Assembly: GCA_016748015.1 (NCBI GenBank)
Contig: JAAOMT010000028.1
Span: 78,001 to 142,000, forward strand
DNA: 64,000 nucleotides
Reading direction: 5' to 3'
DNA from: Geosiphon pyriformis uo1
Taxonomy: Eukaryota; Fungi; Glomeromycota
Shown one piece after another: positions 3,058 to 55,229 of the stretch. Numbering within the stretch: position 1 is the stretch's first letter; every line of letters starts with the position of its first letter. A program made the translations under genes and the position numbers. Under the pieces are notes generated by a model. It saw only the letters and a program-made list of their open reading frames with translations, made no database searches and was not told the origin of the DNA.

Positions 3058-3668
3058 TATTACTCATAGTAATTAGAAGTATTGTATAATTAGAAGATTA
3101 GCCAATCAGAAGTAGGTGTAGAAACAGAAGAATTCCAGAATTTCTTTAAAGAAATTGCAGAATTCCAGAATTCCAGAATTTTTTGTAAGAAATCACAGAA
3201 TTCCAAAATTTCAGAAATCTCATATAACACCAACTATGTATATATAGTAGTAACATTAAAAGCAAGAAAAGTATTCAGAATTCAGTTTAAATTCAATTAA
3301 ATATACTTTTTTTACCTATTTATTAATTTTTACTTTATAAATAGTAATATTAATTGAAGTGAATTTATCAAAAATATTCAATAAAACATACTTATTATTA
3401 TCTAATCTATATTATTATCATTTGATTGAGAATCTCTATCATTCATTTGTTATCAACACTTTATGTTAATAACACTCAATACTTAATTATACTGAAACAA
3501 TAGTTTTTGATTATGACTATTGACAAAATACTAATTTTTATTTTATTTTCTTATTTTTTTATTTTTTTTTATTTTTTTGTTGTTTGTTATTTACTAATTA
3601 ATTTAAGAAATTAAGTGCTGATTAATTAATATTAAGAATAGTCTAGTAAAAGATCCAAAAATAAGAGT

Positions 3669-4544
3669 TGTTATGAGATGGTTTTCTTGGTATATTTAAT
3701 TGCTGATATCCTGTCTTAATTGCAATCAGTTTCTTGTGAGTTTCTTAATTCTAATTGTATAATAATGTTGGTATTTAGGCTGCTGGTTTCTTTTTGATGT
3801 CCTGATGTAAGCTATTTTTCAATCTCTGATTGTTGTATGTGTTTATGTACTCTTTCTCAGAGACTAAGCTGAAATCTACCCGTTGTTTGGGGTCTTTTCT
3901 GAAGCTATTCTTGCAATTGTTTGGTGTGTTTCTCTAATCTAGAAACACGGAATATTAATGGCCTTTAATGCTTTTTCTAATTCTTCTTATTCAGTTTTTA
4001 TCAATTAGTAGTTATGTGAATAATTTTGATCAGGGATTATTCTTTTAAGAAATTCAACTGATAAATGATAGTTTTATTCAATAATTAACACAAGTGAGTT
4101 TCTTACTACTTTGGAGGTTGTGATAATTTAGTTTTAAATATTCTTTTTCATTTCTTTTTGATTTAAAGGTTTCTTGGGATATTTAATTTAAAGGTACGAT
4201 TTAAAGTAGAATTTGTTGGATAAATTAGATCTATTGCTTGATAAGTTATGATTTTTATTACTTGATTGACTTTTCTCAATATTAAAGCTACTGTATATAT
4301 ACATGTTTGTAGTTCTATGAGAAAACACATTGTAATACTTTCTTTTTGATATTTCAACCTGGTGTTTGCTACTATTATCAGTTGATGTTGACTGCTATTG
4401 TGAACTGGTGCTTGCCACTATTGCAAGATGGTGTTTTGTTACTATGTTAATCATTACCTTTCTAAGATTATTACTGTGCTATATTATGATTAAATAGTTT
4501 ATATTATCTTTATAATTTTTTTGTTAAATTCTTAAACCATAACA
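3669..4544 (-). repeat. 3' LTR of element A
   Basis: Colinear with 20700-21575; flanked internally by the PPT (ttatccccttctttcaag on +). Confidence 0.93.
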
Positions 4545-8229: not shown

Positions 8230-8605
8230 GGGTTTTTAGAAGTGGCCATAGGTGGCTGGAATTCTGGCCTGGTGGTCATTATAATTGATCAAAAGCTCTT
8301 GGGTGATCCTAGTCTAGGGTGGCATTGGCTTTTGTTAGCCAGTTATTTCCTATTAATGCTTGATATTATGTAACGTCCATTATTAATACTTTTGTATGTA
8401 TTACTATGCTGTTAATTTCAAAAAGAAATGAGTCAATTTCACTATAAGGCAGCTTTGTACTTCTATCGGCTGTTATAATTTGAGATGTTGTAACACAATC
8501 AACTTTGAAACCCAGTTGGTTTACTAATTAAAGCATTACAATGTTTCCAGCAAATCTACTATCCAAAATAAGTTTGATTGAGGTATTGTTTACAGTGATT
8601 TCCAT
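8230..8605 (-). pseudogene. Element A aspartic protease (C-terminal part; its N-terminal part lies right of 18469)
   Basis: Removing element B restores ...CPVMYM|EITVNNTSIKLILDSRFAGNI (decayed D-S-G) ... QALIGNNWL. Confidence 0.85.
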
Positions 8606-9575
8606 TGTTATCAGTAGAATTTTAGCTATTAATTAGCATAAAATTACTCTTATAATTCCTATAATTAATTAGTATATTAATATCATTTCAAATTATCATT
8701 TATTATTTAATCAATTATTACATATTATGATTCAATTAAAATAATCTAATTAGTATAACAGAAAGTAGAATGATCAAATTACACAATACTCTGAACTTTG
8801 TAACATTCTAAAATTCGCCAAAATTTACCGAAATTTATAAGAAATTCGCCGAAATTATGAATAGTTCACTCAAATTAATCAATAGTTTAGCGAAATAACT
8901 TGTAGTTCATCAAAATGTATCTTTAGTTCACCAAAATTTAAGCAAAGAGAAAAAGTGCAAGTTCATAGACTAGTACTACAACAAGTTGTATAAAAGAAGA
9001 GCTTTTTTTTTCAAGAAAATATATCTTACTTTAGATTTATCACTTAGAACCATTCCTACACACACAAAAAAAAATAAATATCAAATAATTTGAAAAACCA
9101 AATTCTTTAATTATTGCACTTGGAAAATCCTCAAAACCCAACTAACGTTTTAAAATTGATTAGCTACCAATTTCAGTAAACTGTTAGTGACTCTAGGCCT
9201 GAATAGAAAACGTTTCCCTTGATAAAATTCTATTTCTTTTACATTTCTTTTATTTTTCTTTCTTTTCTTATTGCAATCATTAAGATAGCCTACAGACAAG
9301 ATTCCTGTAGAAGAGTTGACTTTCACAGCAAAGTAACTACACATTTTTAGTGAGCTTCCAGATGAGCAATTCCTGGGAAAAAGTTGATGTTTACTACAAC
9401 ATAACTACATAAAGTAACTGATAAGGAATTGGCCATTCCACTTATAAGCCCAGCAGTTCAAATTATAAGAAATAATTTGAAGATAAATTCAGTAATTGGA
9501 GGTTTAACTACTTCTAGAAAACATAAATTTGCAGTTACAACATTCAAAAAAAAAGACCAAAAACCTTCAGTAACA
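8606..9575 (+). repeat. 5' LTR of element B
   Basis: Colinear with 17521-18468; U3 has short aaattcgccg-type tandem units. Confidence 0.96.
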
Positions 9576-9577
9576 TT

Positions 9578-9621: not shown

Positions 9622-12600
9622 GTGACAACCACATCAGACACAACAACTTTAGAGTATTATTAGTCAATTTACACCCATTGCAAACAGAGATTCAACATCC
9701 CAGATGGAATTGAAATTGTTGAAAGAACACTCTACCAATACATTGAAAACCATATCAACAATTATCTTCTTGGAAATTACAACATTTCAGAAGTGAAAAG
9801 CAACCTCTACAATAATCTAGTACACTATTCATGATTGGGAACTGAAGACCTTAACAGTGAAACACTTGCCACCTACTTTCAAGAACTCAATTACAACATT
9901 ATCAAGTATGGTGAAGAAAAATACCCAGTACAGTCTAAATACTCTTTTGACTTTGAATTAGAAACAGAAACAGACAACAAAGGCAAACAAAAAGTGAAAC
10001 AACACTCAAAAACTGCTCCAAACACTCCAATACTACCAAAGACAACTGCCAAACACTTGCAAACACCTGAACAAGGAACCAGTGTTAAATTACCACTTTC
10101 TATCACACCATTTCCAATTTTATTTGCTCGACAACAAACACCAAATTCACTACTTAACCATTTCTCCAGACCAGAAGATTTTCAGTCACCTAGAAATCCT
10201 ACTCAACAGCAGAAACCTATATCAACAAGCACCAATATTATTGAATACTTGCAGAAAAACGAAAGTGATCATTCAGAAAATTTGGAAAGTGAAGAAACTG
10301 AATCAGAACAAAAAGAAGCCACAGAAAACAAAGAGGAAATGACAACTGCTTACATTGCAAAGATTCCAGAATTCATGGGTGAAGATAATGATACCAGTCC
10401 TCAAGAATGGCTTGACAAAATTCAAAAAGCAGGAGATGCAAATAGTTGGATTGCAGTAAAAATGCTTAAAGCAATTCTTTACTTTCTCCAAGGAACAGCA
10501 GAAAAATGGTTTGAAAATTTAGAAGAACCATTTGAAAACTGGCAAGCATTCAAAGATGCTTTTCTACAACAATTCACCAACAACAATACCTCTATCACTC
10601 TCAGAAACCACTCTTGCAATATCAAACAAGAAACATCTGAAACTGTTATGACCTATCTTGGAAGATTTAACAAACTTCTCAGATGAATTTGACAATTGGA
10701 AACCAATAACTACTATTCTGATGCTCAAATTCTGGATCAGTTTATAGCAGGGTTAAAAGACAAACTGATTGAAAAAGTCTGTCTACATGCTTCAGCAGAC
10801 TTAGCAACTGCCATTAGACATGCAAAGAATTATAAAATGGCTATGAAAGAAGCAAACCACACCAAACTTGTTAACTTGGCTATTGGAGAAATCAGTTCAG
10901 CAGCTGAAGAAAAGATAGACCAACTCACAAAGAAGGTTGAAAGCTATTTTACAAACCAACAACAACAGCAGCAACAACCCCAAAAATATCAACCATCACA
11001 GTAACACAACCAAAACAACTTTGGACCACCATCCAACAACCAACCTCAAAATTGTCACTATTGTGGAATTCCAGGACACTGGAAACGAGATTGCAGGAAA
11101 CTACAAAGAGACCAACAAAACAGGAGTAATCAATATTACTCTTTACCACAACAATCTTATTACCAACTCCCACCACCAACTTATTATTCACTGAGACCAC
11201 AAATTCAAAACAGCTATTATCAACCAGCTCTACAACCAATTCAACAACAATATTAGCAATCTTTACCAATTCAGCAATTTCAAACACCACTCACTCAACA
11301 ATATCAAGTACCAGCAAGAAGATTGGTTTAACATAACCAATTCACACTCCAAAATCAATTGCAGAGTAACAACAACAGAATCAATTCAAATAACCAGTTG
11401 GTTCCCTGAAATTCTGGTCAGCAAAGACCCAATCACTATCACACTCAACCCAGTTATCTTACAATACCAGAGGAATTGGATTTTCAACAAACTGCACTTT
11501 CTGAAGGTGAAGTTACAGCACCAAGATCAAACTCTTCCAACCATACTATTTCACCAGCTCAAATTGCCCAAAATGCCAATCTGTCAGATATATTTCCATT
11601 TGAATTTGAAGCAAATGAATCACTATTTCTGCTTAGTAATGCAGCAGTCAATGAACAGAAAGCAATTACTGCTATGTACACAGAAACTATAGTGGAAGGA
11701 AAACTCATTCACTTAATCTTAGATAGTAGATTGGCTGGAAGTATCATTACTTACCAGCTGATGCAACAACTCAAATGAAACATAGACAGACCAGCTCAAA
11801 CAATTATTGTCACAGCTAATGGTATGAAGAAGACTCCAGTAGGAGAAATTGATGATTTCCCCTTTACACTTGATGGAATCATCATTTCAGTTAAAGTTCT
11901 TCTTATGGATGCATCCCAATACCAAGCTCTAGTCGAAAATGATTGGCTTTTTAAGGCCAATGCAAACCTGAACTGGGAAACTCAAGAACTTAAAATCTTA
12001 TACCAAGGACAATATACCATAGTACTTGCAACCTGTGGTACCTTTAACAAATGATCAAAAAAAGCTCCAGTATTTGAATTTGAAGAAGAGAAAGAAATGC
12101 CACTTACTGAAACCTACATGGCTCTTGGATCACCATCCAATTGGGCTGAGGAAACAGAACAAGAGATTTTCAAAGAATCAAGAAGATGGAAGAAAGTTAG
12201 ATATTCTACACTAGAACCACAAAAAGAACCATCATACATTCCACTAAAATGCAAAGATTGCAAAAAGAAGCTTTCATCAATGGAAGCATGTATTTCTCCA
12301 AAAGAGGAATATGAAACTCATATCTGTTACTTTTGCAAAGCATGCCATAGAGAATGATTTGGATCTTCAAAAAGAAATAGAAAATAGAACAACACATCTT
12401 GCCTTATATGTAGAGATATGTTACCAGAAGAATGCAACTGGATTAATGTTGCAATGAGAAGAGAAGTATGTGATCAAATCTGTCAATATGCTCTATTAAT
12501 TTCGAAAAAAGTCAGAAGAGAAACACTATTTGATGCAGCATACAACAGTGCTCTTAATAAACTTTACCACTACCCTCATAATGCTAAAATGATTTTTGAC

Positions 12601-15246
12601 CTAGCAATGGCATTGATCAATGGAGCCACTCAAAAAGATGTCCGTCAAATGAAAGAAGCTGAATACATTGAGTATACCATGGAATTAGCTAGATTTGATT
12701 ATGAAGATGAAGCAGAAACATATTACCAAATTGCAAGCCACACATATCCGACCAAAGAAGCTCAAATTCAATGATTAGAGCAAATGAACATTCAATTGTG
12801 TGAAGAATACATCATGCCTTGTAATGACCAATGGTGTTTAGAATGCTATGCTCTTAGCATTCCTCTGCCAAATGAAAATGATGAAAATGAAATCGAATTT
12901 GGAGTATCTGAACAAGTAAAAAAACTACCAATCACCCCCATCTATCTCCTTGAAAAACAACCACCTCTACAACTTAAATATTTTAACAACTATGGCCAAG
13001 GAATCAGACCAGAAAAAGCACACGAAATTGATGCCAGATATGATCTAAAATACCTAGGAAAAGATACTTTGGTTCTTCAACCAAAGTCTTTGACAAAAAT
13101 CAATCTCAAAATTGCTCTTAAAATTCCACCTGGAACAATGATTCAAATTGCCTCCAGATTATTATTGGCAAGCAAAAGAATCAATATTAGAGGAGGAGTT
13201 ATAGATGCAGGATACACTGGAGACATTACCATCATATTACAGAATGAGACAGACAAACCATTTAAAATTGAACATGCTGAAAAAATTGCTTAAGCAATTT
13301 ACTTACCCTTAATCAACATTTCAGGTTTACAATTAGTAAACAACAGAGAACAATTGGAAAAAAGTGAAAAAGGAACTCAAGGTTTTGGTTCAACTGGACG
13401 ATTTACAGTTCCAGTAAACATAGCTCTTAATACACAAAATGAATCTCACCAGATTCTTCAACTTCCTCAGCCAATTACCATTTCACCTTTTGGAGAACAT
13501 CACGAAATTTACACTTGCTCAAAACCCACCACTACACAACAAATCTTTGAATCCAATGAACAAATCTGTTTGAAGCATGAAATCTCAATTCCAAACATTT
13601 ATATTCCCAAAGGAATAAAAAAATTTTGAGTCACATTCTACAACCCCAATAATTACTCTATTGTCTTATTAAACAAACTGGAGATTGGAATCATACACAG
13701 CAATATTTTTCAAGATGAAAACCCTCAAATTGTTTCTAATTTCATCGAAATTGTAAGGCACACTCTATTCCCAAATCCAAATATCATTCCCACTACTGAA
13801 AACTACCACTTTTTGAAAGAAAAACTCTCTCGAATTAACATGGGTCCCTTAGAATCTCAACAACAAAGACAATTGAAACAATTGATAGCTGAATTTGCAG
13901 ATATATTTGCAAAAGACAACAATGACCTGGGAAAAACGGATATGGTTCAACATCAGATCCATACAGGAGATGCTTCACCAAAACATTAGCAAGCTTACAG
14001 AGTGCCACTTGCTAGCCACCAATTCATCAGAGAAGAAGTCCAGAGAATGCTCAATAACGGATTGATTCAACCATTAAGAAGTCTTTGGGCTTCACCAGTA
14101 GTCCTTGTCAAAAAGAAAAATGGAAAAATCAGATTTTGTGTTGACTATTGCCAAGTAAACAGTATGACAATTGGAGATGCCTACTCTTTTCCAAGAATTG
14201 ATAACATGCTAGATGCTCTAGAAAAAGCCAAGTTCTTCTCAATTTTAGACTTGGAAAGTAGATACTAACAAGTCGAAATGGACCCAAAAGACTGACCCAA
14301 AACAGCATTTACCATCCAGGGAGAAAACTATGAGTTCAATATTATGTCTTTTGGACTTTGCAATGCACCAGCAACATTTCAGCGACTCATGGATGTTGTA
14401 TATGAAGGGTTCTTATGGCAATCAGTAGTTGTCTATCTTGATAACACTGATGTATACTCATCAAGCTTTAAGACTCATTTTATCCACCTGTGAGAAGTTT
14501 TTCAACAATTATGGAAAGCAGAATTGAAGTTAAACATTGAAAAATATCACTTTGGAAAAACAAGCTTAATTTTTTTTGAACACATTGTTAGCAAAGATGA
14601 AGTCAAACCAAATCCAGGAACAATCAGTGCTGTCAAAAACTTTCAAACCCCCAAAAATACCACAGAACTAAGAAGATTTGTAGGATTAGCCTCTTACTAT
14701 TGAAAATTCATCAAAAGATTCTCAGAAATTGCCAAACCACTCAATTATCTTACCAATAAAAATGTGCCATACAAATAAACTGAAGAACAACAAAAAGCAT
14801 TTGAAACTCTCAAAACAAAACTGACAACAGCCCCAGTTCTTGCTTACCCAGACTTCAACAAACGATTTCAATTAGCCACTAATGCTTCACACATAGCATT
14901 TGGTGCCATCTTATCACAAGTAAATGAAAATGGGCAAAAACAAGTTATTGCTTATGCTAATAGAACACTCAAACCAACAGAACTAAAATATGGCTCAACT
15001 GAATTAGAAGCTGCCACAGTTATTTGAGCTCTTAAACATTTTCAACAATATCTAAAGAATGAAAAAGAATTTGACATAATAACAGACAACATTGGCTTCA
15101 AATGGCTCAATAAAAAGAAAACTGAACAAAGTGCCAAACAGTCTCAATGGAATGACTTCCTAGCAGACTACAGATATATTGTACACCACAAACCAGGAAA
15201 ACTATATATCAATGTTAATAGCCTCTCAAAAATGAGACAAGATTAA
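9622..15246 (+). pseudogene. Element B ORF1 polyprotein: Gag(CA, CCHC)-protease-Cys-rich domain-dUTPase-RT-RNase H
   Basis: All ORF-track fragments from 9835 to 14002 share one frame, broken only by single-base stops. Motifs: IPEFMGE..SPQEWL, CHYCGIPGHWKRDC (11053-11094), LILDSRLAG, dUTPase GGVIDAGYTG/GFGSTG, RFCVDY, VVVYLDN, QLATNAS, ELEAATV. Confidence 0.93.
12960..13400 (+). pseudogene. Element B dUTPase domain
   Basis: KAHEIDARYDL, IASRLLLAS (decayed RSS), GGVIDAGYTGDITIILQN, EKIA*AI and KGTQGFGSTG correspond to dUTPase motifs 1-5. Confidence 0.92.
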
Positions 15247-15304: not shown

Positions 15305-16686
15305 ATGGATCCCAGAAATTACAATCTTAAAAATTATTTGGAGACCCTTACTATGTTAGAAAACTGGTCTCCAAGTAAAAAACATCGTTTACAACATCAA
15401 TTAAAACAATATTTTATACACCAAAACAAAATTTATTATAAAAATCACAGAAATCCAAACTAACTATTCAGATTAGTACAAAAGAATGAAAAAGAAACAA
15501 TTTTATACAACATGCACACAGATCCGTTTTCAGCACACTTGGGAAGAGATGGAACAATTCAAAGAACTCTTAAATATTATTTTTGGCCTCACATGCAAAA
15601 AAACATTCGAGAATATATAGAATCTTGTGATAGTTGTCAAAGAAGAGAAGAAACTCACTCCACAGAACCTTTAAATCCAATCAAAGTTGGACAATCTTTT
15701 GACAGAGTTGGAATTGATTTAGTCGGACCATTACCTATCACAACCCAAGAAAATTGCTATATTGTAGTAGTAGTAGATTATCTTACCAAATGGCCTGAAG
15801 CTAGAGCCATTCAAACAGCAAATGCAAAATCAGTAGCAAATTTCATTTATGAAGACATTATTTGTAGACATAGATACCCAATTAAACTTTTATCTGATCA
15901 AGGAACACATTTTGTAAACAACTTGATACAAAAAATTTGTGAATAGTTCAATGTCAAAAGACCTCTATTATCATCTTATCACCCTCAAACAAATGGACTT
16001 GTAGAACGTTTCAACAGAACATTGTGAGAATTTCTAGCCAAAGTCTTAACAGACTTTAAGCAGGAATGAGATATCTTTATTTCATTAGTGTTACTAGCAT
16101 ACAAAACGCTAAAACAAAATACTACAAAACACATAACATTTGATCTTACTTATGGAAGGACAGCAATATTACCAATTAATTTCACAGTGGAAACATACTC
16201 AGTGCAACCAATCAATGAAAAAAACTTTCAAAAAACACTCCAAAAAAGGGTCTACACTCTTCTTAGTACACTGGAAGGAAAAAGAAAAATAGCAACAACT
16301 CATATTAAACATTTCCAAGCTCAACAAAAAGAAAGACATGACAACAAATTACCACCTATTACTAACAAATTTAAAGTTGGAAATAAAGTTCTCTTACACA
16401 GAACTAAGACTGAAAAACAATGGAATAAGAAATTTGAAAACAAATGAGATGAACCATTTTATATTCACGAAATTCTAGGCAATAGATTATACAAGTTAAG
16501 ACTTGATGATAAAATACTAGCAAAAGTTGCACATGGAGACAGATTGAAACACTATCATTCCAAAAACAATCCTGAACCATTAATTCCACAAATTGGTACA
16601 CATTCCTCTTTAATTAATCCTGAAGATATTCCCTGAAATTTAGAACCAATAATTATAATAGAACAACAACCAAACTTGAACACTTA
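15305..16686 (+). pseudogene. Element B integrase encoded as a separate ORF (HHCC, DDE, GPF/Y; no chromodomain)
   Basis: Own ATG at 15305 (MDPRNYNLKNYLETL) in a different frame from RH. Motifs: MHTDPFSAH...CDSC, GIDLVGP, LSDQGTHF, PQTNGLVERFN, K*DEPFYI (decayed WDGPF). Confidence 0.9.
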
Positions 16687-17520: not shown

Positions 17521-18468
17521 TGTTACCAATAGAATTTTAGCTATTAATTAGCATGAAATTACCCTTATAATTCCTATAATTAATTAGTACATTAATATCA
17601 TTTCAAATTATCATTTATTATTTAATCAATTATTACATATCATGATTCAATTAAAATAATCTAATTAGTATAACAGAAAGTAGGATGATCAAATTACACA
17701 ATACTCTGAACTTTGTAACATTCTAAAATTCGCCGAAATTTACAGAAATTCGCCGAAATTATGAATAGTTCATCCAAATTAATTAATAGTTCAGCAAAAT
17801 AACTTGTAGTTCATCAAAATGTATCTTTAGTTCACCAAAATTTGAGCAAAGAGAAAAAGTGCAAGTTTATAGACTAGTACTACAACAAGTTGTATAAAAG
17901 AAGAGCTTTTTTTTTCAAGAAAATGTATCTTACTTTAGATTTATCACTTAAAACCATTCCTACATACACAAAAAAAAATAAATATCAAATAATTTGAAAA
18001 ACCAAATTCTTTAATTATTGCACTTAGAAAATCCTTAAAACCCAACTAACATTTTGAAATTAATTAGCTACCAATTTCAGTAAACTGTTAGTGATTCTAG
18101 GCCTGGATAGAAAACGTTTCCTTTAATAAAATCCTATTTCTTTTATATTTCTTTTATTTTTCTTTCTTTTCTTATTACAATCATTAGGGTAGTCTACAGA
18201 CAAGATTCCTGTAGAAGAGTTGACTTTCACAACAAAGTAACTACACATTTTTAGTGAGCTTCCAAACAAGCAATTCCTGAAAAAGAGTTGACATTTACTA
18301 CAACATAACTACATAAAATAACTGGCAAGGAATTGGCCATTCCACTTATAAATCCAGCAGTTCAAATTATAGGAGATAATTTGAAAATAAATTCAGTTAT
18401 TGGAGGTTCAACTACTTCTAGAAAACGTTATAACATTCAAGAAAAGAGACCAAAAACCTCCAGTAACA
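17521..18468 (+). repeat. 3' LTR of element B
   Basis: Colinear with the 5' LTR; ends cagtaaca followed by TSD ccat. Confidence 0.96.
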
Positions 18469-20699: not shown

Positions 20700-21575
20700 T
20701 GTTACAGAATGGTTTTCTTGGTATATTTAATTGCTAATATCTTGTCTTAATTGCAATCAGTCTCTTGTGAGTTCCTTAATTCTATTTGTGTGATAATATC
20801 ACTGTTATACTGAAGGCTTTTTCTTTAATATCGTGATGTAAGTTATTTCTCAATTCCTGATTGTTGTATGTGTTTATGTATTCTTTCTCAAAGGCTGAAC
20901 TGAAATCTACCTGCTGTTTGGGGTCTTCTTTAAGGCTATCCTTGCAATTGCCTAGTGTGTTTTTCTAATCTAAAAACACGGAATATTAATGGCCTTTAGC
21001 ACTTTTTCTAATTCTCCCTATTCAGTTTTTATCAATTAGTAGTTATGTAAATAATCTTGATCAGGGATTATTCTTCCAAGAAATTCAACTGATGAATAAT
21101 AGTTTCATTCAATAATTAACACAAGTGAGTTTCTTACTATTTTAAGAGTTGTGATAATTCAGTTTTAAATATTCTTTTTTATTTCTTTTTGATTTAAAGG
21201 TTTCTTGAGATATTTAATTTAAAGACACAATTTAAAGTGGAGTTTGTTAGATAAATTGGATCTATTGCTTGATAAGTTATGATTTTTATTATTTGATTGA
21301 CTTTTCTTAATATTAAAGCTACTGTATATATACATATTTGTAGTTCTACAAGAAAACACATTGTAATACTTTTTTTTTGATATTTCAATCTGGTGTTTGC
21401 TGCTATCACCAGTTGGTGTTAGCTGCTATTGTGAACTGGTGCTTGCCACTATCACAAAATGATGTTTTGCTATTATGTTAATCATTATCTTTCTAAGATT
21501 ATTACTGTGCTATATTATGATTGAATAGTTTATATTATTTTTATAATTCTTTTGCTAAATTCTTAAATCATAACA
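20700..21575 (-). repeat. 5' LTR of element A
   Basis: Colinear with 3669-4544; followed on the minus strand by a PBS-like tt-tagtaaaccctacaagg (TGG decayed to TAG). Confidence 0.93.
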
Positions 21576-22701: not shown

Positions 22702-23591
22702 TGTTACTTGAAAAAAAAAAGCTAATCAAAGAAAGAAAGAAAAACATAAAAAAAAAAACATAATAAAACATGAAGAGATACAGAATAATGTGCAATAATA
22801 TTGAATAACATATTATAACATAGAATAATATATTATAATATAGAATAATACAGAATAATGTGTAATAATGTCAGATAATGTGTTATAATATAGAATAATT
22901 AGTTATAACATAAAAAAATAAAACAATAGCTAACAAAAACAGACAATCCAAAGCAATCCTGTAAAACTAAAAATATGTATATATAGCAATAGCATTAAAA
23001 GCAAAAAGAAAGAATTCTTAAACAAAAATTCATTAGTTATCATTCTTAATTAGAAACATATTATTCCAAAATATCAATAAATATACTTATTCAGCATCTT
23101 AAATCTAATTACTTACTATCAGCTCTAAATGTTGATAGTAATTGATACTTAAACCACATAGAAACAATAGCTTTTGATCATGGCTATTAACGAGATACTA
23201 ACTTGTATTGTCTTGGCTTAATTTTTTTTATTTCATTTTTTATTTTTTTGTATCTTATTAGTGGTTTACTAAATTTTTAAGGATTAAGTACTAAGTTATT
23301 AACATCAAGAATTGCCTGGTAAAAGACCCCTGCAAGTGAGTAAAATGCATAAGAATTACAGATTACTTATCAAAAGATTGCCAACCACCAAGCTAAGAAA
23401 AAAATTGATGAAATTGTGATTCTGGGAAGCTACAGATAAAATAACATGAGAATCTCTGTCTATTATACAAAAAACTCAATCAAAATCTTCAGAATGCAAA
23501 AACCTTCAGATTACTACCATCCCATATCAATTGAGCACCAAGTTATGAGTTTGTTATTTACTCCAACTATCTGAAATAATCATCTATAATA
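22702..23591 (+). mobile_element. Solo LTR family C, copy C3
   Basis: TGTTAC start; decayed end tataata; flanks ctgc/ttgt (a TSD with two C>T changes); same R/U5 blocks as C1. Confidence 0.75.
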
Positions 23592-25610
23592 TTGTTTTAA
23601 AGGCATCAGCCATTACAGCAGCAGATTCATGTTCCTAAAGAGATATTAAATTAGAAAACATATCATCATTAAAAGATAACAAACTTACATAAGGGCCAGA
23701 CATATTAATGTTCTCAAAACCACACTCAGCTTTTAGAGCAACTACTTCCTGCTTCAACTTACCAATAGTTCTGCTAAAGATACTTATGTGAACCAAAACT
23801 TTGTTGACCTTGAGACCAAGAGCAGAACTTGAAACCAGATTACTATTAACAAATTGTTCAAAAACTTTGACCATAGATCCAACAGACTTAATAATAGATT
23901 CAACCAAAACAAAAAGCTTGGCCAAATCAGATTTCAGAGATGCCAGCCAAGAAGACACCAAAAAATCTACAACAGCCACAAGAGAAGCAGAAGCTATTAA
24001 AAAAAAAACTCAGAAAGAACAAAGGAAACAAATGTCTTTGTATAAAACAAAAAACCAACAAAATATGGTTTAAATATCTTGGGAGCCTTAAAAGAAAGAG
24101 GTAGAGCAACTTTGCAGTCCACAGCCAAGTGGTCTATCTCTTGACACCAAAAACAATGCCAGCAACCAGGAGTTTCTTACCAGATATAGCACTTTCTCAG
24201 TGTATTAGTTTTGACAACAGCAAGATCCAAATCAGCTTGAAAGCCAAATGTAACCAGAGCAAAGCAGAGACAATAACCAAAATCAGAAGACCAAAGAATA
24301 AAACAAGTCTAACCACCAACTTAAGAAATCATATCACTAATTTCAAAGACAGTACAGTCAAGAGGAAAATTAACCAACTTGGCTTTAAACTTATCATAAA
24401 ACACAATTGTTTCCTGTTAATTTATGAGGAGAAGAATCTGAATACTATCTTTGCCCACTAAAACTGACCAGTGATTGAGAGCAGATGTGGCAGCATCTAA
24501 ATTCTTAAAATAAACAACAACATATTGCCAAATACCAGCAGATCTCAACTGAATACAAAAAATTTCACCAAAAACACCAAGAGCCATCTTAATATTAGCA
24601 GCAGATACACCCAAAGGCACATTGTGCAATGCAATAGCAGCAGAAGGGGAGCCAGACTCAGAAACTATCAAAAACTTGGCAATTTTAAGAGTTGCAAAAT
24701 GAACAGAGCTTGTAAGCTCAACCAAAAATACAGCATCCAAAAAGTTTTGGAAAGCAAACTTCATACAGAAAAGCTTTACATTGTCTTTTGAAACAGACTT
24801 TGCATCCAAAAAACCATGCACAGACTAGAAGACAGTTTTAACATGAGCCAGTTTGATCTTAAAAATAGCACCAAACACCAGAGTAGAGACCACTTATCCA
24901 GTAAATCTTTAATAACTAGTAATAGTTTCTCAAACACCACCAGAAGTAGCACCAGAAACCAGAAAAGAAAATAATTCAGTATCTATTTGGTCAGCCCAGT
25001 TCTTAAGCACAGGTGACATTACAGGAGATAATTGTTTTGTTTTTAAAACCAGTGATAATTTGCTAAAAGACACCACATTTGGCAATACAGCCAATAATTG
25101 ATTTTGGCCTATCTTGAATAATATGCCAGATGATACAACAGAGATCTTATTTGAGATCTCATTTGGAACCACAAAGGAGTTCGGTGTAACAATAGCAGAG
25201 GCAAGCAATTGCCTCCACTTTTCTGAACTTTTGGTCTTTTTGACTATTTTTTTTGAAGAAGTGCTAAAAGCACCAAATATTGAAGCTATGGAGAGAAATA
25301 TTAGCTTGTTAACTAGTTTATTATTAAACACTTTTGGGCTCTTAGTAAGAGTGAAAACAACACTGGAACTAACCCAAGTGTGTCTCTTTAAGAGAACTTT
25401 GACCAGTGAAAAACCAGCCAAAGATAGGGAAGTTGCTTCAGTAGCTATTAAAGACAGTTTTTTACAATTACTAGATAAAGAGAATGCTTCTAAAATGTTC
25501 TGTCTGATTGCTTTTACAACAAAAAAAGCTTCTTTGGTTGAAATTTTATTAGATATCTCAGGAAAGATATCAAGTACAGCTTTTTTACTCTTTGCTTTAG
25601 TCATGGCCAT
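23592..25610 (-). pseudogene. LINE ORF1 remnant (RRM-like segments + CCHC knuckle)
   Basis: MAMTKAKSKKAV...; LHNVPLGVSAANIKMALGVFGEI (RRM-like); CFWCQEIDHLAVDC at about 24113-24155; homologous to 46562-48180. Confidence 0.78.
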
Positions 25611-26639
25611 AAAATTAAGGAAACAAAAAGTTTTTTTATTTTTATTTAAAATATATAAAAACCAGTTTTAATATAAGTTTTATAAAATAATTAAATTTTA
25701 TAAAAACACATAAAACACAATTAGTTAAAAATTAAAACTAATTTAATTAAAACATAAAATTTTTTTAATTAATTATCAAAAATATGTGGTGTTTAAAAAC
25801 TTAATTTTAAAAAAAAAATAAAAAAAACATAATTAAAATATTTAATTAATTAAAACACTATTATTAAAATTATATTTTTAATAACATGATATTTTTTATT
25901 ACTTAATTAATATTATGATAAAGATAAGATTAAGTATTAAAACTAATAACTTATTTAATAAAATAAAACATAATATAAAATATTAATAATATGTATTTAA
26001 GAATTAAAAATTAATAAAAAATTTGAAGTGTTAATAATAAGTATATAATATATTTAAAATATTAATAAAAAGTATTTAAAGCTTTAAAATATATATATAT
26101 ATATATATATAATAACTGATTACTTATTATAAAACTATTAAAAAAAATTGGCTTAATATAAAATTAATATTTTTTTAATATACAAAAAAACTGTATATAT
26201 AGTTAAATTATATAAAATCTATATATTATATTAAAACTATTTTAAATATATCAATTATTTATATATATTTAATTTAGTTATAAGTTTACTTAATATATTA
26301 TTTTTTTAGAAGCTAATAATTTAAATAACTAAATTTAAAAATATAATTATATATTATTAACACTAATTATAATTATAATTAATATAATCTGACATAAATC
26401 AATTAATTATATTTTTGAATAATAATTGCAAATTTAAAATATTAAACTGCATAAATAAAGACATATAAAATTTTTAAAACATAATAAAATTTGTTGTTAT
26501 TAAATTATATATATTAATTCTTAATTTTTATTGGTATTTCTTAGTTTGCTAAGATTTTTTTATATTTAATTTAGTTAAATAATTAGATTATGCTATATTT
26601 TTTTGTTGTTATTAAGTTAATTGCTGATTTTTTATTTGA

Positions 26640-27420
26640 ATTTGAATTTATTAATTAAATACAATAATATAAGTCTTTTTTACATGATTTTAATAATAAT
26701 TTTTATAATATATATTATAATTTTTATATTAAAAATTATAAAAATTATGCTAATAATAATAAACAAAAATTCATTAATAATAATAAATAATAATTAATGT
26801 TTAATTTTTTAATATAATAACTGGTTTATTTTAGTGTTTTTTATTCTTTTGATAAGTAATTCAATAAATTAATTTTATGTTTATTTTTGTGTTTTTTATT
26901 AAATAATTTTTAATATTATAATTTTAATATTTTTTCTAAAATTAATTAATAAATAATAAAACAATAAAATAAAATAAAATAAATAAAAATTAGTATTTTG
27001 TTAATAACTATAATTAAAAGTTATTGTTTTAGTGTTGTTAATAATATTGTATTTATACTATTAATATTATTTAAAAATAAATAAATTTTAATATAATAAA
27101 TATTAATTTATATAAATAGAATAATAAATAATTTTAATAATAATATTTATTAAAAACATGTTTATTTTAAGTGTTAAATAATTAACTATTGAAGCTATTA
27201 GATAAGAACCAAAACTAAATTTAATTGTTTTTTTTGTTTTTACTGTTATTATTATATATATTTTAATTTTTATAATACAAAATTCTTAAAACTTTTAATA
27301 ATTCTTATATTTTTTTTAAGTTAGTATTAATATTTCTAATATTTTTAATATTATATAATTTAATAATTTCTTTATTATTAGTTAATTTATATAATTTTAT
27401 TTTTTAAATTATTTTTTAAG
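26640..27420 (-). repeat. Highly AT-decayed family-C LTR remnant
   Basis: Reverse complement of 26991-27034 (cactaaaacaataacttttaattatagttattaacaaaatacta) matches the conserved C block; ends approximate. Confidence 0.5.
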
Positions 27421-28559
27421 TAATATTGTTAATATAAATATTAAAATATCAAATTCATAAAAATTTCTTAGACTAATATTAAAATTTTAAATATCTAATT
27501 TATATTGAATTATAATATTATATACAAAAATAAAAATACTTATAATAGTTTTTAAATTATTTACAAAACATTAATAACTTTTAAAAACAATTTTTTTAAG
27601 ATAAAGTTTTTAGTAATAACTATATATAAATAGTTACTGGATCTTATTTTATATAATAATCAAATAATTATAAAGTTTGTAATCAATAAACCAAATAAAT
27701 TATATTATTTAACAATAGTATTAATAATAACTATTTTTTTAGTAACAAAATTTGATTTATACAAAAATATATGATTCAAATTTTTATTAAAATATAATAT
27801 ACTATATAATCTTTTTTTTATATAATTAGTAATTTTTTGTGTAATATTTTTATAAAATAAGAATAGAAATTAATCTAATTAACTTAATATATATATATAT
27901 ATATATTTAGATATTATACTATAATTGTATATAATAAGTTTAAATTTTAAGTTAAAAACTTATTTGTATATTTTACAGCACAATTGGCTTTTTAAACAGC
28001 AAATTTAACAGAATTAAACAATTTTACATAAAATATTAAGCATTTTTAAAAACAAAATAATCATAAATAACCAAATATTATTTATTAATATTATAAAATA
28101 AGAAGTTGTAAAAGTGTTAATAATTATATTTATGTAATTATTACTTATATTGCCAAAATAATTTTTAACTTTATATTATCAAATTATTAAATTTTGTTTT
28201 TGATAATATTATTAATATAATAATATTTTATTAGTATTTATTATAAAAATCAAAACCAGAAGTATTTAAATTTAATGTATATATATTTAATATAATCTAA
28301 TTATTTAAAAACTATATATTTTATTTAAATACAAATTAAAACAAAAATTATTGCTTATAAATTACCAAAATTAATAACAAAAAACCATAAATATTTAAAT
28401 TTACTTTAAAATTAACATTTAAGAAATAAAATAAAAACATTAACAACAATATTAAAAAAATCTATGTCTTAATTAAACTATTAGTATAAATATTAATAAT
28501 ATTTAAATTATTATTATTATTTATAAAATAAAATAAAAAATAAGTAACAGTTAAAAAAA

Positions 28560-29365
28560 TAACATAAATTAACTAATAACATAATATAAATTATCAAAAT
28601 ATACAATATTAGAAATTTTAAAAATACCAAAAAAATTTTTAAAAATATTAGCAGAAATATTAAAAATTCCAATAATAATTTAAAAAATATGTAAAATTAT
28701 TAAAAATTCCAAGAATTTATATTATAAAGATTTATATATATAGTATTAAAAACAGAAAAAATAATCAAGTTTAATTTAATTTTTATTAAGTAACTTTAAT
28801 AATTAAAAATTTAACAATTAAAATAAATATTTTAATAAAATTATTATTTAAATTATTACTATTTAAATTTATTTATTTTTAATTAATACCAATAGTATTA
28901 ATACAATTTTACTAATAATATTAAAATAATAGCTCTTAATTATAATTATTAATAAAATACTAATTTTTATTTTTTCTATTTTTTATTTCTTTTATTGTGT
29001 TTTATTTATTTTACTAAATAAATAAATAAAAGTAAAATTACAATATAAAAATTAGTTGGTAAAAAATATAATAATAAATGTAAAATTGATTTATTAAATT
29101 GCTTATTAAAAAAATAAAAAACATTAAAATAAACTAATTATGCTAAAAAATTAAATATTAAATATTATTAGCTATTATTATTAAATTTTTGTTTATTATA
29201 TAAAGAATTTTATTAACTAAAACTTTTAAATACTTAAACTTTTAATTAATTAAAATCTTCAAATATTAAAATTTTTAAATTTAATTAATAAATTTAATAA
29301 ATTTAAAGCACTAACTTATAAGTTAATATATTAAATTCATAATTTATAATAGCATCTATTAATTA
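28560..29365 (+). repeat. Highly AT-decayed family-C LTR remnant
   Basis: tatatatatagtattaaaa TATA block, aaataatagctcttaattataattattaataaaatactaat and tttgtttattatataaag match C1/C2; ends approximate. Confidence 0.55.
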
Positions 29366-30467
29366 TTTTTAAATTATTGTATTTAAATAAATAAAAAAGC
29401 AAATTTAAAGAAAAAACAAAATACACTAAGCAACAAGACTTTTATTATTAATAAACATAATAATAATATTAAACTAAACAAAAACTAACTTTTTTAAATC
29501 TAATTTTTTTAATAATAAAAGTTTTTTTAAATAAAACATGAATCATAATAATTTAAAAGTTGGTTGATAAAAGTATTTTAATAATCTAACCAAATTAAAG
29601 TAAAATAAATAGGCCAAAATATTTAACATTAAAATTTTTTTCTTTAACAAAAAGTGTAAAATAAGCCATTTATCAAAAACAAATTAGTTTATTTTATTAT
29701 ACAAACCTAAATTTATTTAAAGCTTTTAATTAATATATATAAATTACATTTACTTAAAGTTTTTAAGCAAAATTTTATGGTTTTTATTTTTAATAAAATA
29801 AAATCAATAATTATTTTACAACTTTACTTAAAAGTTAAAAATTTAAATTAATTTATTTAATATGGTCTAAATATTGTTATTTGTTTGTTACTATTAATTT
29901 TTCCAAAATATTTAAGCTTTAAAAATTTTAAAAATGGTTAATTTTTATATTTATTGTAATCAAAATTTTATTATTTGTTTCTAAAAGTAATATTTTTTAT
30001 TTTTAACAAATATTTAATTAACTTAAAATCTTAAACTTCAAAATATTTAATAAGTGATTTTTAAATGATTGGTTTTATTATAAATCATATTTGAAATATT
30101 CAATATTTAAGAGTTTCGAAAACATATTAATGAAAGGATGCAAATTCTATGGATTTTCATCAAAATTTGAATCAAAAGAATTTGAACATAAATTATTGGT
30201 TTGAAAAACCCGTAATAGAGATGCAAAACTGATAAAGGATGGCAAAAACAAAACGTGCGCCAGATGAACCTATGTGTTATTTCAATTTTCAAACTGTTTG
30301 TGGGTTTAGGAGCGTCAAGATACTTGGTTCGAAATGAATCAAAATGTAGGATACAAATTTCTTGATATAAATACTAAGTGTTTGCTTGAGGTAAAAATTG
30401 AAAGAAGTTCCGACTCAAAAATAAAATCACAAAGAGTCCATGATCTCTTAATCTATAACAAGATATC

Positions 30468-31266
30468 TCAATAAACCGATAATATCTCTGAAATAGCTTG
30501 TTTCAAAGATTCAGGACTGGCAGTCGTGAACAAAGTACCCGGGTAGGATTTACTACCCCATTGTGGATGAAGCAAGATGTGGCAACAACCAGCATTCTGG
30601 ACATCATATTTTAAAAATTCCTGGGCGCCTTGAACATCCGGGTATATTGATGGACCAGGTGGAGAAAACATCTTTGAACAGAAAATATTCTAATCATTAG
30701 TAGAGCTGAGATAACTTTCATAAAAATCCTTGGTGAACTAATCAATAAGTATATAGGGCCTTACCGGGAAGCCTGATGCCGGGTCAGTGATATCAGCCCA
30801 ATTCCCATTTTTTCGTAAAATTTCACATACCGCCGTTCCCCATTCAAAAAACTTTGAAATTGTTACACAAAACTCGAAAGCCTGTAACTTTTTAATCTGT
30901 CAAAAACTTAAATCATTTCAATATACTTACCATTTCAAGTTTTTCGTCTCGCTCTTTGTCAATTAAGGGACCCGTACCAACAAGATCATAGACGCATTTT
31001 TGGAAGGTGGGCACCACAAGACACTTCTCAAGATCATTCACTTTTGGAAAAACTCCTTTTAGATCTCTAGTGAATCTGCTTGAAATAGCGTGAATCGAGT
31101 ACTCAATAGTTAATTTTCTGCGAGTCTTGGGAGTTAATGCAGTCACGATTATTGGGCCAAATAATGAAATAGATCGTTTATTTCCAGCTCGAGATTTAAT
31201 TGCAACCGTCTTTGAAGAAAAGGAGGAGTTAGTGGGAGAACCACAAGACATTAAAATGTGCTCCAT
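30468..31266 (-). CDS. MMADHC: MMADHC/cblD-like cobalamin trafficking protein (3 exons: 31266-30931, 30851-30765, 30671-30468; 208 aa)
   Basis: GT-AG introns keep frame; motifs WADITDPASGFP, GCCHILLHPQWGSKSYPGTLFTTA and TFQKC..DL are characteristic of the cblD family. Confidence 0.88.
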
Positions 31267-31425
31267 AATTTTGACAAAGGGTTTCTCAAAAAAAAAAAAC
31301 TATGAACGATGGGACAGATAATCTACAGTTTATTACACATCACGGGTTTCATTCTTAGGACAAAAAATAACACGTAGCAACTATCTTGATTCAACTAACA
31401 GGATAATACTTTCCAAAAATTTTTC

Positions 31426-32490
31426 ATGATGGTTAAGACAAAAGGCTTGTTACTTGTAGACACTTTCATCTTTTATTTCATATTATTATCCTTACTTTGG
31501 CCAGATTTAGCTGAGGGAACAGCCCTAACATACAATGTTGCTGCACATGAAAAGGCTTGTTTCTACGCTTGGGCTGATAAAGCATATGAGAAAGTTGCTT
31601 TTTACTTTGCGGTAAGATTTGAAACGCTAGTCGAAAGATTTAGGAACAAGTTTTATCCAATGCTCGTTATCAATTTTTGGCACCCGGCTTTGCTGGAGGG
31701 TCACAACATCTTTAGTCAGTGAAACTGTGGCCGCCTAGAATGTGAGAGTGTCATGTTTAAGGAAAATTTTGCGAGCTCATACCAAATATCCATTTTATTT
31801 TATTAATGGAATTGAGACCGGTTTTCTTTGATACATTTCAAAAACATCGATTCTTCGTCCCGGAAAAGAAATCAGCTGCAAAAGATTCAAATTTCTTGAC
31901 ATGAGGAAGCTAAAAGATACATGGAGCTCTTTTTCCTTTTCCATTTTCATTGCTAAAACATTGATTTCTAAATTAATTAATCTTAATATATCGCTTTATT
32001 AAATTCTCAGGTACAATCGGGCGGTTCTTTTGATATAGACTATGTAGTAACTGACCCCAGAGGACACGTAGTAATTAGCGGTGATCGAGAACGTCAAGGA
32101 GACTTTGTATTCACAGCAAATTACGTAGGGGAATACTCATTCTGTTTCGCCAATGACATGTCAACCTTCGCCGAAAAATTAGTCGATTTCGAGATTACAA
32201 TTGAGAATGAACCTCGTGCTGAATTACCCAATTCGAAAGGCGCTACCCCCGAGAAAACAAGTAACATGGAAGAAAGTTTGTTCCGATTGAGTGGAAGTTT
32301 GAGCACAATTGCTAGAACTCAGAAATATTTTAGAACTAGGGAAAATAGGAATTTTTCTACAGTTAAGAGTACCGAGAATAGAATATTTTGGTTCGCGTTG
32401 TTGGAGAGTGGGCTTATTGTTGGAATGGCTGCGTTACAGGTTTTTGTTGTTAGGACCTTCTTTAGTACTACGAAGCGCGGACACGTTTAA
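31426..32490 (+). CDS. p24/emp24/gp25L (TMED, Erp-like) cargo receptor (exons 31426-31611, 32011-32490)
   Basis: Signal peptide, GOLD domain (CFY...FYFAVQSGGSFDIDY...GEYSFCF.N), coiled coil, RIFWF, TM helix, FF cytosolic tail. Confidence 0.93.
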
Positions 32491-33343
32491 GAGAAATTAG
32501 TGATGTAAACATAAATCATGGTGTATGTTAATGGATGGAGGATTTCATGAGAAGTCGAGTCGAAGCACTTGATCGCCTTGACCTCAGCAGTCGAAGCTTT
32601 TGAACTCAACTTTTAGTGGAAAGACTGTGTGGGGTTCAAGACTTTTGTTTCTTATTTAATCCATAGGTTTTTCAAGACTACTAAATTTAGAGAAATAAAA
32701 ATATTATTGTAATAAAGACATTTGTCGGATTGAAACCATTACTCTAAGGCTTTGAAGAGCGAAATGAGATAATTTTTTTAAAAATGAAGTGAATTTTGAA
32801 GTAATCCCTAAGATTTCATCATAGTACTGAATAACCATTCACTTAAACGGTTTCAATGAAATACCCATCACATTCTTTTCTCTAAAGTACTCATCCTAAT
32901 ATATGTTTCGTGAATTAACAACCTCAGAATATTTTCCGGTAAATGAACCAAGTTCGATCAGGCTAACAACTTTTCACATATCATGAAAGCTGGAAAAGGA
33001 ACCATTTAGCCGTCCAGATTTCAACCTCTAATTAACTATGATTAAAATCTTATCTGCTATTCGAATACTTGATTGAAAAATTATCCATCACCACCCAGCT
33101 TACAAATATGAAAAATATGGCAGATACTATGACTTTTAACGTCTAAGTTAACCCTTTTTTAGTGAACTCTTGAATATGCAACATTAAATAGTAAAAAAGG
33201 GACCCAATAAAAACTATGGCAGTATCGGCTCCCCACGCTCCTAAAAAAGGGACACAAAAACGGCGAAAATGAAAAATATGTCGGAATAACACAATGTTTT
33301 TTGTTATTTTTTTTTGGAACAAGTAGACTTGTTCCGATTGAGG

Positions 33344-34119
33344 TCACTTTGCAAACGGTTCCCCAACTGGAAATAAAAATAGAGTTGATTTTTAATTTCA
33401 ATTTCGGTTTGATGTAATATTAATGTCAATATTTTCTTAGTGATAAGCAGCTTACTATTTTTTCCTCGTAATTTTATACCAAGCACGCGTTCAAGTTTGG
33501 TTAGAACTTGTTGACTTGGAATTGTACGGCCCATTTCGTAATCATTGATCTTAGAGTATATGGTATTTTTAGTCGGTAATAAAATTATACAGATAAATGC
33601 CACGAACATATATAAACATTAATAAAACATACAGAATCTGAACTCAATTATTGCACAACAAATTCGATTTCACTTACAATATTAGCTTTTTCATTAATCT
33701 TCACACCAAGATCCTTTTGGTTTAATCCTTTAGCTTGTCGAGCCTGTTGTATCGCTTTACCGACGGATAAACTGATTTTGGGGGGTGGTGCTACATCGTT
33801 TTCTCGATCCAGTTTGGCTATGCGTTGATGGTCGGTATTGGTATGCATCTTGTTGGTGCCACCAGTAGCTTAAAATTAAATTGATCAATTTGATATGAGA
33901 AATCATGAACCAAAAGCAAAAAGCTTTTATGAAATCAACTGTTATTGTAATGCTTTTCCAACAATTTGTCAAAAAGATAGTAGCTTTACTTTTTCGTTCT
34001 GTTTCAACAACCGCATTAGCACGACGCGCTTGGTTAATTGCGGACGCCCCTTTGGCAACCTTTACCGTTTCTCCACGCTTTCGAATGACAACAGGTTTAT
34101 CCCAATCACCTTCGCTCAT
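33344..34119 (-). CDS. MBF1: Multiprotein bridging factor 1 (exons 34119-33990, 33868-33678, 33549-33456, 33366-33344)
   Basis: [63 protein letters not shown]; canonical splice sites. Confidence 0.95.
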
Positions 34120-34511
34120 TGTTGCTTTTTAGTATGTGGATATTATGAAAATTTAGGCAAAATAATAGACACTAACACACGATAATTTCAGTGGTTTTAT
34201 AAATTATTAGTGAATCAGGTGGGATGACGTAATTATCATTTGTGTCATGATTACCATTAGTAAATTTTACAAATCGTGGGACAGTTTCAACAAAAGAAAG
34301 TAAAGGAACAAACTATGCTGCAATTAAGTATTATAAAAAGTCGAAATATGCATCTATGGCGCATCTACATTTGCTTATATTTGCTTTGCTTTGGAATTCA
34401 ATGGATTTTTGAGAAAATTGTGTTTCTTTGCTTATTTTTTGTCTCTGCAATATTTGTGTTATAAATCCCTCTGTAAAACTTGCTAGAACAGAACCCAGAA
34501 AATTGATAATA

Positions 34512-35687: not shown

Positions 35688-36012
35688 TGCAATAAGAGTT
35701 GTTAAAAAAACAAATCGATGATTTCTCTCGATTACCTTTTCGGGCCCGATATAAACGGTTTACTTATCCTTGGGACTCAATATTTTGTTTTTTTTATTGA
35801 ACTACAGACGGTGGATTATGTTATATTATTAACGAAAGAAAGCTATGCGTAAATGAATATATTCACAAAGGGGAGAAAGTATATTGTACAAAGTTTAAAG
35901 TCCATATCTACAGAGATCATAAAAGATTTTTCTAAAAAATCAAAACCTTAAAAAACTTGCCATATAGAGCATAGAAAGAAATCAGATCATATAATAAATA
36001 ATATAGATTTCA

Positions 36013-38489: not shown

Positions 38490-38837
38490 TTTTGAAGGAA
38501 TTATTCGTAGCAACGAAAAGGTTGAAAATTTTCGTGCAAGACTTGTGTAAAATGGGGTATGATTGATCTCCCAGCTACACTGATCCAGACCAATAGACAT
38601 TAACGATCAGAACATGCCAAGTGTTTCTTGAATTCAAAATTTCGCTTTTGATTAGTAAATTTATGACCTAACTTTAGTTCTAACAGATGATTATTATTTC
38701 CGTCAATTGAATTATGCAAGCAAATTTTAGTGTCCTTATTTTCGCGGAGCAGAGCTCAACACTAATATTTAATATAATATATATATTTACTATAATAGTA
38801 TGTACATTTTGTGCATAAAGCCAATATTTATGCGATT

Positions 38838-55200: not shown

Positions 55201-55229
55201 TATTATGAATAAATTTGTTGGATTAGTAT

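Follow-up and report, generated by a model that had tools for sequence, protein, structure and literature searches.

The window (the whole 64-kb stretch of Geosiphon pyriformis DNA that was analysed) holds a host gene cluster flanked by nested and decayed retroelements [Table 1]. The p24 exon located at 32014-32487 shows 100% identity to the protein G. pyriformis G9A89_002564, the next matches being from Ambispora (91%) and Rhizophagus (85%); judging from this exon and from the gag matches described below, the host belongs to the Glomeromycotina, outside Dikarya. A Ty3/gypsy element, B, lies inside a second element, A (3669-21575), and A in turn interrupts an older LTR. Pfam support for the protease of B comes from homologues only, and the integrase occupies a frame different from that of the RT-RNase H, its relatives being stand-alone proteins of ~420 amino acids. 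A dUTPase domain is present in both A and B (6415-7116 and 12775-13290, respectively), which is of note given the heavy loss of cytosines from this genome. The repeat family represented at 24852-25634 is presumably LINE-like. The low-GC tract at 25700-30000 includes a fragment from the older family of LTRs (3483-3664 versus 27041-26881), and two inverted arms located in this 10%-GC DNA (26756-27107 and 28846-29199; 75-81% complementary) match the same older family in opposite orientations. Two other candidate LTR pairs, 546-1055/23071-23589 and 48435-48915/59305-59787, showed many transversions and gaps and were rejected as pairs and treated as separate or saturated copies. An Rfam search of the whole window returned no match.

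Table 1 Features of the 64-kb window
Feature	Position	Strand	Remarks
5' LTR of Ty3/gypsy element B	8606..9575	+	92% match to 17521-18468; the finding concerns the first 365 bp
3' LTR of element B	17521..18468	+	polypurine tract just before
Whole element B	8606-18468		TSD ccat/ccat
Left TSD of B, ccat	8602..8605	.	identical right copy at 18469-18472
B frame gag-(protease)-dUTPase-RT-RNase H	9625..15110	+	22 stops; Pfam gag, dUTPase; tblastn
Integrase of B, separate frame	15320..16585	+	5 stops within 15389-16501
LTR of element A	3669..4544	-	left TSD gagt 3665-3668
Other LTR of element A	20700..21575	-	right TSD aagt 21576-21579
Probable solo LTR, older family, left part	3058..3668	.	right part 21580-21827; split by A
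TSD of the solo LTR split by A	3054-3057 / 21828-21831		gtac / gcac
Second probable solo LTR, older family	22702..23591	.	TSD ctgc 22698-22701 / ttgt 23592-23595
Element C, older and more decayed relative of B	53449..57709	-	A/T at roughly half of the G/C sites of B
Younger copy of another repeat family	24852..25634	-	older copy 46536-47188; no Pfam hit
End-state repeat tract	25700..30000	.	GC 0.10, no CpG, TC/AC 0.41
End-state repeat tract	46200..49000	.	GC 0.14, 1 CpG, TC/AC 0.54
End-state repeat tract	57710..60300	.	GC 0.085, 1 CpG, TC/AC 0.48
Host gene cluster, control	30300..46000	.	CpG O/E 0.99; introns GC 0.286, TC/AC 1.68

A sequence-only reading of this DNA had counted ~15 substitutions at the start of B's LTRs, all of them transitions and many outside CpG. 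Alignment of this first part (8606-8970 against 17521-17874) yielded 15 transitions and no transversion over 352 columns, with an inferred CpG at only 2 of the 15, and the four examples quoted in that reading (gcatg/gcata, taccct/tactct, agtaca/agtata and tagga/tagaa) were located at 8640, 8648, 8675 and 8769. Over their full length, the LTRs of B differ by 55 transitions and 1 transversion (946 columns) and those of A by 91 transitions and 7 transversions (873 columns). Relative to a 3:1 transition:transversion null, the excess of transitions is significant in the first 365 bp (p = 0.013), in B (p = 2e-6) and in A and B together (p = 7e-11); against a 5:1 null, the first 365 bp taken alone are not significant (p = 0.065). 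With C/G taken as ancestral, pooled LTR-pair rates were 18/33 for CG, 36/92 for CC, 46/215 for CA and 44/213 for CT. Most of the seven transversions of A's LTRs fall in a short (50-bp) patch at 3754-3802, which points to template switching or to an exchange, confined to this patch, with a further copy.

Lesions of the same type were found in the coding regions. All 22 stops in the 9625-15110 frame of B are compatible with a C:G>T:A origin (CGA, 13; CAR, 5; TGG, 4), in agreement with the CGA/CAA/CAG/TGG origins proposed earlier; for 15 of these stops the origin was judged from Geosiphon copies (2-3 copies in three cases), and for the other seven from a single RT alignment. The RT motif YLDD has become YLDN in B and YLNN in A, as expected from the suggested D>N decay of catalytic residues. 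The three target-site duplications (TSDs) said to differ by transitions (gagt/aagt, gtac/gcac and ctgc/ttgt) are all present, and B's own is unchanged. TSDs are nonetheless weak evidence because the flanks, where checked, consist of further repeats or of decayed AT-rich DNA, and because two of the pairs resemble decayed CpG-centred sites; the TSD differences were rejected as a sign of spreading into unique DNA. Three of the four pairs (ctgc/ttgt, gtac/gcac and ccat/ccat) fit decayed NCGN sites; the gagt/aagt pair of A does not.

The direction of change was read from other copies of the family. Contigs of one DNA run, which may be the assembly's own source, were aligned on the 5' LTR of B (14,639 pieces), giving 49 family variants at a depth of at least 25% (A>G, 16; T>C, 15; C>T, 8; G>A, 6; transversions, 4), 40 of which were inspected. 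The 5' LTR carries T/A opposite C/G of the 3' LTR at 27 sites, and at 16 of these C/G was common in the family (at least 25% depth), as against 2 (at most 6) of the 28 opposite sites (p = 4e-5 to 0.006 for the contrast). At least eight of the 27 sites are absent from the variant list, some lying at the LTR edge, beside a skipped repeat or in A-runs, and some true T>C changes are possible among them. Comparison of B with the family majority over 95 codon changes gave 62 forward, 10 reverse and 15 transversion-type changes.

The family-wide spectrum was derived from gag. The best 120 matches to B gag (10270-10683) are all G. pyriformis gene models, and 119 of these 120 listed proteins, this locus's own model having been removed, were aligned to the B frame. 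HSPs of at least 60% identity and at least 30 residues, away from gaps, were retained, and 890 codons with a depth of at least 12 and a 60% majority were scored. In the unfiltered set (96 proteins), 2,461 of the 3,614 residue differences were single C:G>T:A changes, the rest being 202 reverse changes, 387 transversions, 224 multi-hit but compatible and 340 unexplained differences; the rates were 0.088 for C:G>T:A (2461/27951), 0.0047 for the reverse (202/43258) and 0.0028 for each transversion (387/138616). Ninety-five copies were scored over 100 or more codons, and 68 of them, carrying no more than 1.2% transversion-type changes, were defined as the core set; this filter drops a sister subfamily and therefore biases the transversion rate down. 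In the core set, C:G>T:A stood at 0.084 (1826/21760), the reverse transition at 0.0035 (117/33152) and each transversion at 0.0011 (114/106577). C:G>T:A was thus 24 times as frequent as its reverse, and none of the 68 copies was unmutated, with loads of 0.031 to 0.111 per codon. A set of 150 representative RT proteins, distant at 32-47% identity, was left out, as was a 1.2-kb locus that was the one yield of a metagenome scan for relatives with LTR pairs. The gag homologues among these best 120 matches are Geosiphon 'hypothetical proteins' built on decayed gag, and none of the best 120 integrase matches over 280 amino acids is named Geosiphon. The Geosiphon annotation therefore likely contains many TE relics and few open integrases, and caution is warranted because fragments of decayed gag account for many of its genes.

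Outside CpG, the 3' neighbour of the lost cytosine had little influence in core gag (CA 0.083, CC 0.097, CT 0.072), and the 5' neighbour mattered (T 0.132, C 0.096, A 0.048, G 0.045), a 5'-pyrimidine bias that persists at non-wobble positions and on both strands. TCG was the top trinucleotide (0.21), and cytosines without a pyrimidine neighbour still decayed ~10 times faster than T>C (ACA 0.036, GCA 0.041). The same bias was seen in LTR pairs (YC 90/288 versus RC 54/265, p = 0.004). Element C has lost 92/200, 98/180 and 92/190 of the G/C sites of B in three alignments, at 171/265 YC versus 113/274 RC sites (p = 8e-8, two of the three alignments sharing one LTR), and the older copy of the repeat family at 24852-25634 has lost 54/85 and 46/89 G/C sites relative to that younger copy, at 57/76 YC versus 45/88 RC sites (p = 0.002). 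CpG was scored separately because the majority filter hides CpG sites. Over 305 cells at seven CGY arginine codons, Arg was retained in 77, with Cys in 118, His in 95 and Tyr in 15, which amounts to a loss hazard of 0.69 for each C, or ~8 times that outside CpG; the scarcity of double hits (the 15 Tyr) indicates that destruction of the CpG puts an end to the loss, the outcome expected from deamination of 5mCpG. As is also expected of passive mCpG deamination, CpG loss is confined to repeats (CpG O/E 0.0-0.39 versus 0.83-1.09 in introns and exons). Contrary to what that process alone would give, non-CpG cytosines are far from background, their change to T being ~20 times the reverse (19-24 times across repeat comparisons), and most C>T changes in repeats lie outside CpG although CpG decays fastest. 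Hidden decayed CpGs were ruled out as the source of these calls, as none of the 40 inspected family variants turns a B difference into a CpG and CC and CT contexts cannot come from CpG.

The contrast with non-repeat DNA was assessed by composition. Ten introns (1,077 bp, delimited by spliced contigs, from 15 inspected of 48 contig joints; a small, compositional control) have a GC content of 0.286, a CpG O/E of 0.83 and a TC/AC ratio of 1.68, and fourfold sites in seven host exons a GC content of 0.33. The interiors of B and A show a GC content of 0.33 with a CpG O/E of 0.12-0.16 and a TC/AC ratio of 1.0-1.1. The corresponding values are 0.19, 0.16 and 0.79 in element C, and 0.085-0.14, 0-0.21 (0-1 CpG each) and 0.41-0.54 in the oldest tracts, so that the progress of decay from young to old copies is visible. 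GpC, the least mutable context, is over-represented 2.4-2.8 fold in these oldest tracts. Old copies had been described as nearly G/C-free beside genes that keep CpG, and this holds, with 8.5-14% GC and 0-1 CpG per tract next to a gene cluster with an O/E of 0.99. The repeat spectrum predicts 5% GC at equilibrium under an 18-fold GC>AT pressure, where introns imply ~2.5-fold. CpG deamination combined with the bias seen in introns thus does not account for the 19-24-fold excess in repeats, which upholds the earlier proposal of a repeat-restricted C>T process of broad context; confinement to repeated DNA, one of the marks of RIP, is established here by composition only (introns and fourfold sites versus repeats). 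One stretch of the gene cluster, 42165-43350, is CpG-rich (GC 0.43 and O/E 1.07 over 41.9-43.5 kb), and pieces of it, 40-70 nt long, have 80-90% identical counterparts in many other contigs whose depth is that of single-copy DNA. Two RNA-type runs have contigs over 41993-42585, and Rfam gave no match there. This stretch may be a short dispersed element or a non-coding RNA family escaping decay.

The sequence-only reading had also called for a check of strand clustering per copy, and none was found: the strand-score variance over 67 copies was 1.01 (95% CI 0.74-1.47), and core gag showed neither strand runs (912 of 1,758 same-strand neighbours versus 927 ± 20 expected) nor clustering (300 near pairs versus 313 ± 15 expected). 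Simulated same-strand batches averaging at least 1.5 scored events were rejected (P = 0.0005), although true batches of ~2 could pass this simulation since only nonsynonymous events were scored. Strand skew was opposite in the two LTRs of A (28:16 versus 18:27, p = 0.034), one of three pairs examined (B, p = 0.79; C, p = 0.84), and once context had been corrected for, G>A on the sense strand slightly exceeded C>T (mean Z -0.41). Copy loads spread 0.5-1.8 fold around expectation and showed a weak positive correlation with the other changes (rho 0.29, p = 0.018), a pattern that fits a slow clock. Tandem CC>TT changes were not in excess (14 versus 12.1 expected and 7 versus 6.5 expected).

These features were compared with those of known systems. 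The Geosiphon repeats resemble those of Neurospora crassa in their transition-only decay, nonsense and D>N/E>K lesions, and AT-rich relics beside intact genes, and C:G>T:A dominates as in RIP (146/154 LTR differences; 24 times the reverse rate). Neurospora RIP (RID/DIM-2) is described in PMC7296669 and PMC12543289 as premeiotic and, unlike the Geosiphon process, as clustered, restricted to one strand per round and CpA-preferring. The claim of RIP-like mutagenesis in a non-Dikarya host stands for the host and for a broad, repeat-restricted C>T process, and is not supported for RIP proper, the changes being unclustered, strand-mixed, without CpA bias and fastest at CpG; 'RIP-like in outcome' is a fair description, whereas RIP itself is not demonstrated. 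As presented in PMC8016269 and PMC8497519, Dim2 of Zymoseptoria tritici raises mitotic mutation >10-fold in methylated repeats (>95% C>T; over 90% C:G>T:A for the system), acts outside CpG in repeats only and drives TEs to very low GC, and has been proposed to inactivate TEs without meiosis. Non-CpG C>T restricted to TEs is likewise what we find in Geosiphon. CA specificity with sparing of CG is not: in Z. tritici, >98% of changes are given as occurring at CA, with CG spared and CT hardly methylated (PMC8016269), whereas in Geosiphon, a member of the Glomeromycotina, CpG is fastest, every 3' context is affected and a 5' pyrimidine matters. No fungal methyltransferase with a YpC preference was found in the literature surveyed. 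TpCpG hypermutation of TEs in Pucciniomycotina (PMC3318451) shares the 5' T enhancement and the involvement of CpG, but partial TpCpG matches are reported there not to be elevated, and TCA, TCC, TCT and CC-contexts are strongly mutated in Geosiphon.

Closer relatives differ as well. Rhizophagus irregularis, of the same subphylum, shows CpG depletion confined to repeats as Geosiphon does, with only CG methylation called in the account given by PMC8647823; unlike in Geosiphon, its integrase families keep open ORFs and carry mainly CpG-type changes. Six R. irregularis integrase clusters (72 listed members, some from metagenomes) were scored for residue changes: 37 were diagnostic of non-CpG C>T and 23 of its reverse, 35 were of the CpG type and 63 of the transversion type. 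After normalisation for exposure, forward changes exceeded reverse ones 1.9-fold in these clusters and 1.95-fold in another four, compared to 11.3-fold (core) and 7.8-fold (all 95 copies) in 12-copy draws from Geosiphon. This comparison suggests that Rhizophagus TEs undergo mainly CpG decay, unlike those of Geosiphon; different genes were compared, and those of Rhizophagus are still open and subject to selection. RIP signatures are stated to be undetected in Gigaspora and Mucoromycotina (PMC8647823 and its preprint). RIP-like decay outside Dikarya has been suggested for Zoophthora radicans and other Entomophthorales (PMC11105155), a case in a different phylum that is presented there on dinucleotide indices and with author caveats, where that of Geosiphon rests on a per-site spectrum and strand tests. 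Phycomyces TEs are reported to carry CG and CHH methylation (PMC11258239), and R. irregularis to have 32.5-49.5% of its cytosines methylated (PMC8298701). Dim-2 is described in early-diverging fungi (PMC7862722, PMC13297926).

Our results probably reflect a gradual, methylation-linked loss of cytosines from Geosiphon repeats, likely vegetative, and similar to Dim2 with a new sequence context. Repeats would be methylated in CG and non-CG contexts, and marked cytosines would turn into T during vegetative growth, being lost singly and from both strands, CpG fastest and pyrimidine-C next, with introns spared. A CG-type methyltransferase could underlie the roughly 8-fold faster loss of CpG, and a DIM-2-like, chromatin-guided methyltransferase the broad non-CG component, the route being either passive 5mC deamination or an enzyme-assisted deamination as in Z. 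tritici. Copies would drift to ~5-10% GC and lose their open reading frames. It is doubtful, albeit conceivable, that the agent is instead a mutator enzyme directed at repeats, its specificity for pyrimidine-C being new, in which case a RID/DIM-2-family activity kept by a Glomeromycotina lineage would act over many weak rounds, possibly in a hidden sexual stage; if so, repeat-induced mutation would predate Dikarya and record cryptic sex in a reputedly asexual group. True RIP, i.e. a RID-dependent, homology-triggered premeiotic mutator acting weakly over so many sexual cycles that strand bursts are blurred, is rather unlikely. Transition purity, repeat restriction and an AT-rich end state do match RIP outcomes, all 95 copies over 100+ codons were analysed and 0 of 68 core copies had escaped mutation, the opposite skew of A's LTRs would fit, and the AMF clade is stated in PMC8298701 to have DNMT1, DNMT5, DIM-2 and RID types, in contrast to the table of a 2026 review that gives RID to Ascomycota only (PMC13297926). 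Against it stand the absence of CpA preference and the rejection of batches of at least 1.5 scored events, where ~92% of Neurospora clusters are reported as single-strand and 76% of mutations as clustered (PMC7296669). LTR elements moreover make up 41% of the Geosiphon genome (41.2% in the AMF-wide TE study PMC11952901, whose available text never uses the term RIP), and a screen of 1,239 genomes across the kingdom is reported to have limited RIP-like k-mer signatures to Ascomycota (PMC12543289), with no match to Geosiphon or Ambispora in 12 of its 19 supplementary files.

Deamination independent of methylation, by a DNA cytosine deaminase favouring a 5' pyrimidine or through unrepaired C>U in repeat heterochromatin, with ordinary mCpG decay in addition, would dispense with non-CG methylation. 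Deaminase motifs resemble the 2-3-fold 5'-pyrimidine preference measured here. This explanation is unlikely, since the strand bias and clustering expected of the editing of single-stranded retroelement cDNA are absent (such editing was rejected as the main cause) and the LTR pairs diverged after insertion, on both strands; neither the reverse transition nor transversions occur at an elevated rate in repeats (3:1 per change), which speaks against a general failure of repair. Very unlikely, too, is ordinary decay, that is, CpG deamination plus a strong genome-wide AT/transition bias masked in genes by selection or GC-biased conversion. CpG is indeed the fastest context, and the few direct non-repeat differences from a second sample (4 transitions to 1 transversion, on single low-depth contigs) do not suffice to exclude a strong transition bias across the whole genome, yet 29-33% GC, CpG and TC persist in introns and at fourfold sites, which probably predate the insertions, where repeats fall to 8-14% GC with TC depleted, and at residues diagnostic of non-CpG change the forward/reverse excess is only 1.9-fold in the Rhizophagus TEs but 7.8-11.3-fold in those of Geosiphon. 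Geosiphon exposes its bladders, with Nostoc, to light, and light damage would cause C>T at dipyrimidines where repair is weak, i.e. in silent repeats. TC and CC are the fastest non-CpG contexts, but tandem CC>TT changes are at chance and ACA and GCA, devoid of a pyrimidine neighbour, still mutate ~10 times as fast as T>C; with neither a CC>TT excess nor a sparing of non-dipyrimidine cytosines, UV was rejected as the main cause and is the least probable of these explanations.

Hypermutation of the Geosiphon repeats is real, strong and repeat-restricted, in a Glomeromycotina fungus; it resembles Dim2-type mutagenesis in its working and RIP in its end state, and fails the context and strand tests for RIP. 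Hypermutation of this kind is apparently unreported for Glomeromycotina: a literature search, mostly at title and abstract level and with the Geosiphon genome paper outside its coverage, returned no report of RIP or of a mutation spectrum for Geosiphon. Mutagenesis directed at repeats has been viewed as essentially confined to ascomycetes, and those mycorrhizal relatives that were studied are reported to lack it; the 5'-pyrimidine context of the Geosiphon changes is unlike both RIP and Zymoseptoria Dim2. Geosiphon would offer a direct test of transposon destruction by methylation alone, without meiosis, and the measured ranking of contexts provides a site-by-site prediction of the methylome. 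Standard RIP indices would miss the young elements, the interior of B having a substrate index of 1.46 and a product index of 0.72.
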